Part shown: piece after piece, positions 11,206 through 40,629 of the stretch
How the letters are laid out: each line of letters begins with the position of its first letter
Numbering within the stretch: position 1 is the first letter of the stretch
Assembly (NCBI RefSeq): GCF_050920415.1
Contig: NZ_CP169309.1
Origin: Escherichia coli
GTDB taxonomy: Bacteria; Pseudomonadota; Gammaproteobacteria; Enterobacterales; Enterobacteriaceae
Length of the DNA: 64,000 nt
Direction: 5' to 3' (one strand)
The notes under the pieces: model-generated
Database searches by the model: none
The model's input: the letters and a program-made list of their open reading frames with translations, nothing else
What the model was told of the DNA's origin: nothing
Translations under genes and position numbers: made by a program

Positions 11206-11281
<76 letters not shown>

Positions 11282-11316
11282 TTGGGTGGTCTGTGCTTTG
11301 CAGCACTTTCAAATTT

Positions 11317-11392
<76 letters not shown>

Positions 11393-24123: not shown

Positions 24124-25679
<1,556 letters not shown>

Positions 25680-25768: not shown

Positions 25769-26302
25769 ATGCGCCTGCTCCCTCTCGTTGCCGCAGCGAC
25801 AGCTGCATTCCTGGTCGTTGCCTGCAGTTCTCCTACGCCGCCGCGTGGCGTGACAGTAGTGAATAATTTCGACGCCAAACGTTATCTCGGTACCTGGTAT
25901 GAGATTGCCCGTTTTGATCACCGCTTTGAACGTGGACTGGAAAAAGTCACCGCAACATACAGTCTGCGGGATGATGGCGGCCTGAATGTCATTAATAAAG
26001 GCTATAATCCTGACAGAGAAATGTGGCAGCAGAGTGAAGGGAAAGCGTACTTTACCGGCGCACCAACTCGCGCTGCGCTGAAAGTGTCATTCTTTGGTCC
26101 TTTCTATGGCGGTTATAACGTTATTGCACTCGATCGGGAATACCGCCATGCGCTGGTTTGCGGCCCGGACCGCGACTACCTGTGGATACTCTCCCGCACG
26201 CCAACCATTTCTGACGAAGTGAAACAGGAAATGCTGGCAGTCGCGACCCGGGAAGGGTTTGATGTCAGTAAGTTTATTTGGGTACAGCAGCCCGGTAGTT
26301 AG
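25769..26302 (+). CDS. blc: Outer membrane lipoprotein Blc (bacterial lipocalin)
   Basis: 177-aa ORF with lipobox (VVACSS) and lipocalin motif GTWYEIA. Confidence 0.93.
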
Positions 26303-26616
26303 TGAGTGCTGAGTTTCAGACCAATAATCCCCAATACGATTAACGCCAGGCTCGCCAGGCGCATCGGGTTAGCGGACTCACCGAGCAGCACAATACCGGT
26401 GATGGCCGCGCCGACTGCGCCAATACCCGTCCACACGGCATAAGCTGTCCCTACTGGTAACGATTTCATCGCCCAGGCAAGTAGCGCCATACTGACAATC
26501 ATCGCCGTCACGGTAATAACACTTGGCGTCAAACGACTAAAGCCGTGGGTATATTTCAGGCCAACGGCCCATACCACTTCCAGCAGGCCAGCAATAACTA
26601 AGATAATCCAGGACAT
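26299..26616 (-). CDS. gdx: Guanidinium exporter Gdx (SugE), SMR family
   Basis: ORF-track 126 aa; start set at [21 protein letters not shown]... (105 aa), four-TM SMR protein. Confidence 0.9.
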
Positions 26617-26680: not shown

Positions 26681-26790
26681 GCTGATGGTTGAACGGGTAT
26701 TTTGCCAGGTGGCAGGGGAATTTCAACTATTACCTTAGTGACTATCGCAAAAAAACAAACGGCACGACACAGCTGTCGTACCGTTATTGC

Positions 26791-26937
26791 TTATTGCTGT
26801 GCTTTTGTTGCTGCACCAGAAATCGCGTTACCGCCATCAGAGATATCTTCACCAACGCCACGCGTGGTGTTGCAGGCAGTTAATACTGTTGAAAGCACCA
26901 GAACAGAAAAGATCGCTGCAATTGTCTTCTTCACCAT
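26791..26937 (-). CDS. ecnB: Entericidin B lipoprotein
   Basis: 48-aa [51 protein letters not shown]; below the ORF-track size cut-off; lipobox LTAC. Confidence 0.85.
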
Positions 26938-27047
26938 AACGTCTTCCTTTTAGGTAATGTTATTTATGTTTGCCTATAGCAAATTAATAATAGACAACAT
27001 CGCCAAAAATGATGGAAATCTGATGATTTTTCGGAAGAGAAGAAAAA

Positions 27048-27173
27048 TTAGCTGGCAGCGCGGGAGATGGAGTTGCCGAGATGTTTGATATCTTCGCCGA
27101 AACCGCGAGCGGTGTTACAGCCCGTGAGCAGCGTGCTGGCAAGCAAAACAAGAACGATAAGGCGTTTCATCAT
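27048..27173 (-). CDS. ecnA: Entericidin A lipoprotein
   Basis: 41-aa [44 protein letters not shown]; lipobox LTGC. Confidence 0.85.
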
Positions 27174-27228
27174 CTCTGACCAGAATAAGTGAGTGATGGT
27201 GCAGCCAACAGGCCGCACCAAAACCGCA

Positions 27229-27795
27229 TTACTTCACGCGAGAGACGTATTCACCAGAGCGGGTATCCACTTTGATGACTTCGCCGATCTGCACGAACAG
27301 CGGAACTTTAACCACAGCGCCAGTAGACAGGGTAGCCGGTTTGCCGCCAGTACCTGCGGTATCCCCTTTCAGGCCTGGATCGGTATCAACGATTTCCAGT
27401 TCAACAAAGTTCGGCGGAGTAACGGAGATCGGCTGACCATTCCACAGAGTTACGATACACTCTGCCTGATCCAGCAACCATTTAGCGTTGTCGCCAATTG
27501 CTTTTGCATCAGCAGACAGTTGCTCGAAAGTTTCGTTGTTCATGAAGTGCCAGAACTCACCGTCGTTGTACAGGTAAGTCAGGTTCATATCGACAACATC
27601 AGCGCCTTCAGCGGAATCAGTAGATTTGAAGGTTTTTTCTACGCGAGTACCGGTCAGCAGACGACGCAGTTTAACGCGAGCAAATGCCTGGCCTTTACCC
27701 GGTTTTACGAATTCACTCGCTTCAACCGCGTAAGGTTCGCCGTCTAACATGATTTTAAGACCAGCACGAAAATCGTTGCTATAGTACGTTGCCAT
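27229..27795 (-). CDS. efp: Elongation factor P
   Basis: 188-aa [50 protein letters not shown]... Confidence 0.96.
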
Positions 27796-40553: not shown

Positions 40554-40629
40554 GCCCGGATAGCTCAGTCGGTAGAGCAGGGGATTGAAAATCCCCGTGT
40601 CCTTGGTTCGATTCCGAGTCCGGGCACCA
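40554..40629 (+). tRNA. pheU: tRNA-Phe (anticodon GAA)
   Basis: GCCCGGATAGCTCAGTCGGTAGAGCAGGGGATTGAAAATCCCCGTGTCCTTGGTTCGATTCCGAGTCCGGGCACCA. Confidence 0.95.

Follow-up and report, generated by a model that had tools for sequence, protein, structure and literature searches.

Two small genes occupy adjacent positions on the minus strand of the window, a term used here for the whole 64,000-nucleotide stretch of Escherichia coli DNA that was analysed. The first, ecnB (26791..26937), comprises 48 codons and a stop and encodes the prelipoprotein entericidin B; the second, ecnA (27048..27173), comprises 41 codons and a stop, is read from an ATG at 27173 and encodes the prelipoprotein entericidin A. 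Both frames are intact, as was established by reading the window directly and from a list of open reading frames (ORFs) extending down to 20 aa. An initial annotation had described two small lipoprotein genes of 48 and 41 aa between gdx and efp, and exactly this arrangement was recovered. The neighbours are gdx/sugE, an SMR transporter gene (26299..26616, minus strand), and efp (27229..27795, minus strand), within the wider order ampC-blc-gdx/sugE-ecnB-ecnA-efp-epmB. The spacer between ecnA and ecnB is 110 nt long and AT-rich (30% GC), and the 174-nt gap between gdx and ecnB is occupied by the gdx promoter and a riboswitch. The region can with high confidence be identified as ecnAB, the entericidin locus of the E. 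coli chromosome, undamaged and at its normal position, and consisting of tandem genes for two paralogous prelipoproteins.

The identification rests on several independent comparisons. EcnB and EcnA are each 100% identical to the corresponding K-12 protein (b4411 and b4410, respectively). Both exceed the gathering cut-off of 23.3 bits for the Entericidin EcnA/B family, PF08085, with scores of 30.2 bits for EcnB and 26.4 bits for EcnA, and each is recognised by its own NCBIfam equivalog model, EcnB by NF007487, 'lipoprotein toxin entericidin B' (121.9 bits against a cut-off of 94), and EcnA by NF007319, 'lipoprotein antitoxin entericidin A' (114.9 bits against a cut-off of 86), each protein falling below the cut-off on the model of the other. 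The two are paralogues, 59% identical, with the common core CNT.RG.GEDI...GN.IS.AA. Together these matches confirm the entericidin identity that had been proposed for the pair. No relative with a solved structure was found in the PDB, even at E = 10. All but one of 5,426 complete E. coli genomes (5,425) contain the 641-base locus, and the E. coli RefSeq records inspected all carry annotations for both genes, in keeping with the earlier description of a known small-protein module. The locus has every feature of the entericidin family that can be tested from sequence. A few unusual records were encountered in the course of these searches. In strain UPEC129 (NZ_CP071522.1) the match covered just the opening 90 bases, at the sugE end of the query, and ecnAB has apparently been deleted or rearranged. 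In E. coli WCHEC040047 an IS200C element is inserted between sugE and ecnB (L005 564..1022). Several E. coli and Klebsiella records in PLSDB that carry the ecnAB locus are 4-5 Mb in length and, although filed as plasmids, are evidently chromosomes.

Each protein has a single cysteine, which lies within a lipobox. In ecnB the lipobox codons L19-T20-A21-C22 lie at 26872..26883 and in ecnA L16-T17-G18-C19 lie at 27117..27128, both on the minus strand, the boxes having been located by a pattern check and their coordinates derived from those of the coding sequences. The claim of a lipobox Cys in each gene was correct, the boxes proving to be LTAC with Cys22 in EcnB and LTGC with Cys19 in EcnA, and neither frame is disrupted. 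Lipidation is predicted at Cys22 of EcnB (26872..26874) and at Cys19 of EcnA (27117..27119), which would be the first residues of mature peptides of 27 aa and 23 aa, respectively. In both signal sequences two of the first five residues are Lys or Arg, and a hydrophobic stretch of 14-17 residues without charge is present. A strict lipoprotein signal pattern was applied to all ORFs of 20-59 aa that begin with ATG in the 64-kb window, 572 in number, and selected only ecnB, ecnA and one low-complexity ORF, so that the pair does not reflect chance and a check for a lipoprotein signal, which had been suggested at the outset, singled out both genes; ecnA passes from either of its two ATGs. Lipoproteins that lack Asp at position +2 after the lipidated Cys are sorted to the outer membrane, and because the residue at +2 is Asn in both EcnB and EcnA the two would be expected to reach that destination. 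The maximum hydrophobic moment over 11 residues is 0.55 for EcnB and 0.75 for EcnA, which amounts to moderate amphipathicity, and since the mature peptides are rich in Gly it is uncertain whether a stable amphipathic helix would form. A published proteomics study remarks that UniProt gives the lipidation of EcnB at C22 as 'asserted by curation', and that the intact protein escapes top-down mass spectrometry, as would be consistent with lipidation (PMC12529367).

Selection on the two reading frames was assessed by comparison with K-12 and with two records from other genera, one from Salmonella (a chromosome-like segment on plasmid pPJT1) and one from Klebsiella pneumoniae, both of which have the arrangement sugE-ecnB-ecnA-efp in common with E. 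coli. The genes of the window differ from those of K-12 at seven nucleotides, affecting five codons of ecnB and two of ecnA, and all seven changes are synonymous and in the third position. Against Salmonella and Klebsiella, dN/dS was between 0.01 and 0.05 for ecnB and between 0.08 and 0.17 for ecnA, and E. coli and Klebsiella have the very same mature EcnB peptide, though synonymous change is close to saturation, 69% of such sites in that region being different. Across the genera the two non-coding spacers show an identity of only 30-68%, that of the ecnA-ecnB spacer as a whole being 34-68%. Since dN/dS is low while the spacers have diverged, ecnA and ecnB are real protein-coding genes under purifying selection. 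Judged by these ratios, the so-called toxin, EcnB, is much more constrained than the so-called antidote, EcnA.

An important consideration with genes as short as these is whether they might be chance open frames, the real features being longer antisense ORFs or simply non-coding DNA. A listing with a 60-aa cut-off would indeed show only two antisense ORFs in this region, at 26689..26883 and 26702..26953 on the plus strand, with lengths of 64 and 83 aa. However, neither of these ORFs over ecnB has a Pfam match, whereas the sense-frame proteins match curated family models, and the bases that differ between genera occupy third positions of sense-frame codons, dN/dS going down to 0.01. Peptides of EcnB have, moreover, been seen by mass spectrometry in many studies (PMC12529367). 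On the strength of the family matches, the exclusively synonymous variation and the cross-genus dN/dS values the chance-ORF explanation was rejected and is regarded as vanishingly improbable. The antisense frames are fairly open in all of the genera compared and thus a count of open frames is uninformative. No credible Pfam match was obtained either for an out-of-frame ORF of 55 aa that overlaps ecnA or for one of 184 aa on the strand opposite efp, the single match obtained for any antisense or out-of-frame ORF (E = 0.063) being under its cut-off. An extension of ecnA to 57 aa from a TTG at 27221 was also rejected, as it would begin within the efp terminator hairpin and lacks conservation. In Klebsiella, ecnA has a single ATG, which aligns with the second ATG of the E. 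coli gene.

The initial annotation had also stated that size-filtered ORF calling omits this pair. This holds for a mechanical filter, both proteins being shorter than 60 aa and even the longest mechanical ORF over ecnA, the one from the TTG, reaching only 57 aa, but it does not extend to curated pipelines such as PGAP, which call both genes routinely. A 60-aa filter loses two real, conserved genes and lists two meaningless antisense ORFs over ecnB in their stead. In a genome scan, therefore, ecnAB matters only as a quality check on the filtering of small ORFs. The genes themselves are already known and well annotated in E. coli, having been present in every reference annotation since 1998, and finding them here is ordinary.

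The spacer upstream of ecnB contains a block at 26984..26994 (minus strand), TCTATTATTAA, that is probably the extended -10 element of a sigma-S (sigma-38) promoter, its placement resting on conservation and on the sigma-38 literature. This sequence is unique in the 64-kb window, where 0.02 occurrences would be expected by chance, and the core of the block, TTGTCTAT..TTA, does not vary among E. coli, Salmonella and Klebsiella. The block in the window matches the sigma-S extended -10 consensus, TCTATACTTAA, at 9 of 11 positions. Downstream of it a further -10-like element, TGCTATAGG, was read at 26973..26981 (minus strand). A scan with the sigma-70 consensus revealed no promoter for either ecnB or ecnA. 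The ecnB promoter has been characterised in vitro, where it was found to be dependent on sigma-38 and poorly used by sigma-70; a -10-like motif with the consensus TGcTATA(A/C)T, located within +1..+20, gives rise to a pause at +17/+18 and overlaps a repressor site for OmpR (PMC5389655). The layout of the window fits this published promoter, with TGCTATAGG probably corresponding to the sigma-38-dependent promoter-proximal pause signal that overlaps the reported OmpR site, the exact assignment of the elements being our inference.

A Shine-Dalgarno sequence, AAGGAAG, lies 5 nt upstream of the ecnB ATG (26943..26949, minus strand), was identified by its match to the anti-Shine-Dalgarno sequence and is kept as AAGGA in E. 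coli, Salmonella and Klebsiella. Beyond the stop codon a terminator scan located an intrinsic terminator (26748..26785, minus strand) made up of a hairpin at 26785..26758, with a 12-bp stem and a 4-nt loop, followed by the T-run TTTGTTTTTTT. The RNA fold has a free energy of -21.0 kcal/mol (z = -5.9, with none of 200 shuffled sequences equally stable) and the stem is conserved in Salmonella and Klebsiella. The same scan predicted no terminator between ecnA and ecnB, and co-transcription of the two genes, as in the single autoregulated operon of a toxin-antitoxin module, is therefore possible; ecnB, however, has a probable, conserved sigma-S promoter of its own and is induced without ecnA (PMC5105897). 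A search of Rfam found no RNA element inside the ecnB-ecnA span. With regard to the conditions under which ecnB is expressed, it was ecnB and not ecnA that was induced by an inhibitor of LolCDE (PMC5105897), and salt shock also induces ecnB (bioRxiv 10.1101/2025.05.13.653802).

The region upstream of ecnA is different in character. No match to the anti-Shine-Dalgarno sequence was found for ecnA, and between the efp stop codon and the gene RNA folding predicts a stem-loop, GGTGCGGCC-TGTT-GGCTGCACC (27198..27219, minus strand), with a 10-bp stem and a stability of about -22.7 kcal/mol (z = -3.2). Salmonella and Klebsiella retain this stem with substitutions in both of its arms (L003 4167..4230 and L004 3482..3558, respectively), but a clear U-run follows it only in those two genera, the U-tract in E. 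coli being poor. The structure looks like a terminator or attenuator of efp that would be leaky in E. coli, and the poor U-tract makes read-through from efp into ecnA plausible. Directly 3' of this hairpin, 15 nt upstream of the ecnA ATG and outside both reading frames, alignment with K-12 and with the closest genome revealed a 4-base tandem duplication, TCAC-TCAC (27189..27196, minus strand). It is absent from the 5,426 complete E. coli genomes, among which the best match was 92 of 96 bases, found in 5,396 genomes, and it is the only feature peculiar to the window. The duplication puts the U-rich tract 4 nt farther from the efp stem and might slightly alter read-through into ecnA, but it could equally be a neutral, strain-specific indel or a sequencing error.

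Comparison with previously described systems places the locus very close to that of K-12 (Bishop et al. 1998, J Mol Biol 280:583), which encodes the same proteins in the order efp-ecnA-ecnB-gdx-blc-ampC and has the same spacer, promoter block, Shine-Dalgarno sequence and terminator. The differences are limited to the seven synonymous changes, a few substitutions in the spacers, the TCAC duplication and a T-run after the ecnB terminator that is one base shorter in the window than in K-12. A locus of the Salmonella/Citrobacter type likewise has ecnB and an ecnA-like gene between sugE and efp, and Salmonella EcnB is 96% identical to that of the window, differing at 2 of 48 residues. The Salmonella-type locus, however, has an extra gene for a regulator of the LuxR C-terminal type between sugE and ecnB, which we take to be ecnR, and has no ampC, whereas in the window the regulator gene is absent and the 174-nt gap between gdx and ecnB leaves no room for one. 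The Salmonella sp. record, pPJT1-452kb, is a 452-kb IncHI2A plasmid that carries the chromosome-like block frdABCD-blc-sugE-LuxR-type regulator-ecnB-ecnA-efp-epmB, with the regulator at L003 3160..3747.

Two other small lipoproteins offer useful comparisons. OsmB of E. coli is a small stress-phase lipoprotein under RpoS control that is induced by sigma-S and osmotically; to our knowledge lipoproteins of the OsmB type are unrelated in sequence to the entericidins and have no paired antidote gene. The gene osmB, regulated by sigma-S and Rcs, was induced together with ecnB by the Lol inhibitor (PMC5105897). In Agrobacterium tumefaciens, Atu8019 is a prelipoprotein of the entericidin A/B family with its lipobox at Cys22 and is found in outer-membrane vesicles; it lacks an ecnA partner, was not lytic either when over-produced or in liposomes, and has a proposed role in the docking of vesicles (PMC7296081).

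The function of the entericidins is less settled than their identity. Whether the pair is best viewed as toxin and antidote or as abundant envelope lipoproteins is a question that concerns the whole family rather than this window in particular. The annotation as toxin and antidote derives from Bishop et al. 1998, in which, according to later accounts of that paper, over-production of EcnB lysed cells and ecnA in cis counteracted the effect (PMC7296081, bioRxiv 10.1101/505081), and programmed cell death was the interpretation put forward in that paper. The label thus rests mainly on one over-expression study. If it is taken literally, EcnB is a bacteriolytic toxin, EcnA its obligatory antidote, and the pair a true addiction module whose balance sets lysis in stationary phase at high osmolarity. 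In favour of this are the lysis and the protection in cis reported in 1998, the names 'lipoprotein toxin' and 'lipoprotein antitoxin' in NCBIfam and RefSeq, the position of the antidote gene upstream of the toxin gene, as in many toxin-antitoxin pairs, and the greater stress sensitivity of an ecnA mutant of Xanthomonas citri. A number of observations are difficult to reconcile with it. The Keio collection includes a viable strain deleted for ecnA (PMC7296081), so that the literature speaks against an indispensable antitoxin; high natural levels of EcnB are tolerated (PMC12529367, PMC4820968), and the text of a proteomics study that routinely detects EcnB does not mention EcnA (PMC12529367). 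Genes like ecnB occur without ecnA in many bacteria, and the homologue from Agrobacterium does not cause lysis (PMC7296081). Furthermore, it is the 'toxin' that is far more conserved than the 'antitoxin'. On balance an addiction module seems rather unlikely, though it is still a serious rival.

Few small E. coli proteins are detected as commonly as EcnB, which reaches up to ~70,000 copies per cell (PMC12529367), and entericidin B is the most abundant lipoprotein in vesicles of S. sonnei, where it is classed as an outer-membrane lipoprotein (PMC4820968), in agreement with the predicted sorting. This very high natural abundance, together with the near-invariance of EcnB, suggests that its normal role is that of an envelope lipoprotein. 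A different suggestion is that EcnB is released as a bacteriocin-like antibacterial peptide directed against competitors, with EcnA conferring self-immunity. Bacteriocin and immunity pairs usually diversify rapidly, which is unlike what is seen for EcnB, near-invariant as it is from genus to genus. A ~3-kDa EcnB homologue secreted by Enterobacter C6-6 is reported to act on Flavobacterium psychrophilum (Schubiger et al. 2015, as cited in PMC7296081), and the enrichment of EcnB in outer-membrane vesicles would provide a possible route of delivery (PMC7296081, PMC4820968), but vesicles and proteoliposomes containing Atu8019 did not inhibit other bacteria (PMC7296081). A role in antagonism is accordingly thought to be quite improbable.

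In the reading considered most likely, EcnB is an abundant envelope lipopeptide of the stress phase, lysis results from its excess and EcnA acts as a modulator; this reading is favoured because an ecnA deletion is viable, because EcnB is abundant and near-invariant and because the Agrobacterium homologue is not lytic. The favoured course of events would begin with transcription of ecnB, largely alone, from the sigma-S promoter in the spacer, with a good ribosome-binding site and a strong terminator; stationary phase, osmotic stress and envelope stress would each switch the gene on, OmpR being the reported repressor. Expression of ecnA would probably depend on read-through from efp past the weak terminator. 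Both precursors would be exported by Sec, receive a diacylglyceryl group from Lgt on the lipobox Cys and be cleaved by LspA (signal peptidase II), followed by N-acylation by Lnt and Lol-dependent sorting to the outer membrane, the predicted products being amphipathic peptides anchored by their lipid, 27 aa long for EcnB and 23 aa for EcnA. EcnB would then normally be an abundant lipopeptide of the outer membrane and of vesicles in the stress phase, and EcnA a paralogous modulator present at a low level, acting perhaps by competition for the same sites or through mixed assemblies. It may be that the terms toxin and antitoxin are misnomers, with EcnB working via a specific conserved partner and EcnA serving as a faster-evolving, weakly expressed tuner, but this is put forward tentatively and at somewhat less than even chances.

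Several features of the surrounding DNA were also noted. The gdx/sugE leader contains a guanidine-II (mini-ykkC) riboswitch (RF01068; 26634..26680, minus strand; 50.4 bits, gathering score 32), both ACGR hairpins of which are conserved in Klebsiella too, and just upstream of it is a promoter-like site, TTGAAA-16-CAAAAT with a TG (26726..26699, minus strand). The riboswitch is a known element and is consistent with gdx being a guanidinium exporter. Some 830 mostly conjugative plasmids from Escherichia, Salmonella, Klebsiella and other genera match the blc-sugE part only, at 60-80% identity (e.g. NC_010261.1 and NC_010259.1), and ecnAB is not carried among those listed; the segment is presumably the mobilised blaCMY-2/blc/sugE region derived from Citrobacter. 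Over ampC the mechanical ORF (24351..25679, plus strand) runs to 442 aa from an upstream GTG and is a longest-ORF artefact, the annotated BlaEC/AmpC gene being shorter, at 1,134 bases in reference records. Elsewhere in the window there are two tandem tRNA-Gly(GCC) genes (11206..11392, minus strand), in a region where K-12 has the three copies glyVXY, and one tRNA-Phe(GAA) gene (40554..40629, plus strand), pheU being a frequent site of integration for genomic islands.
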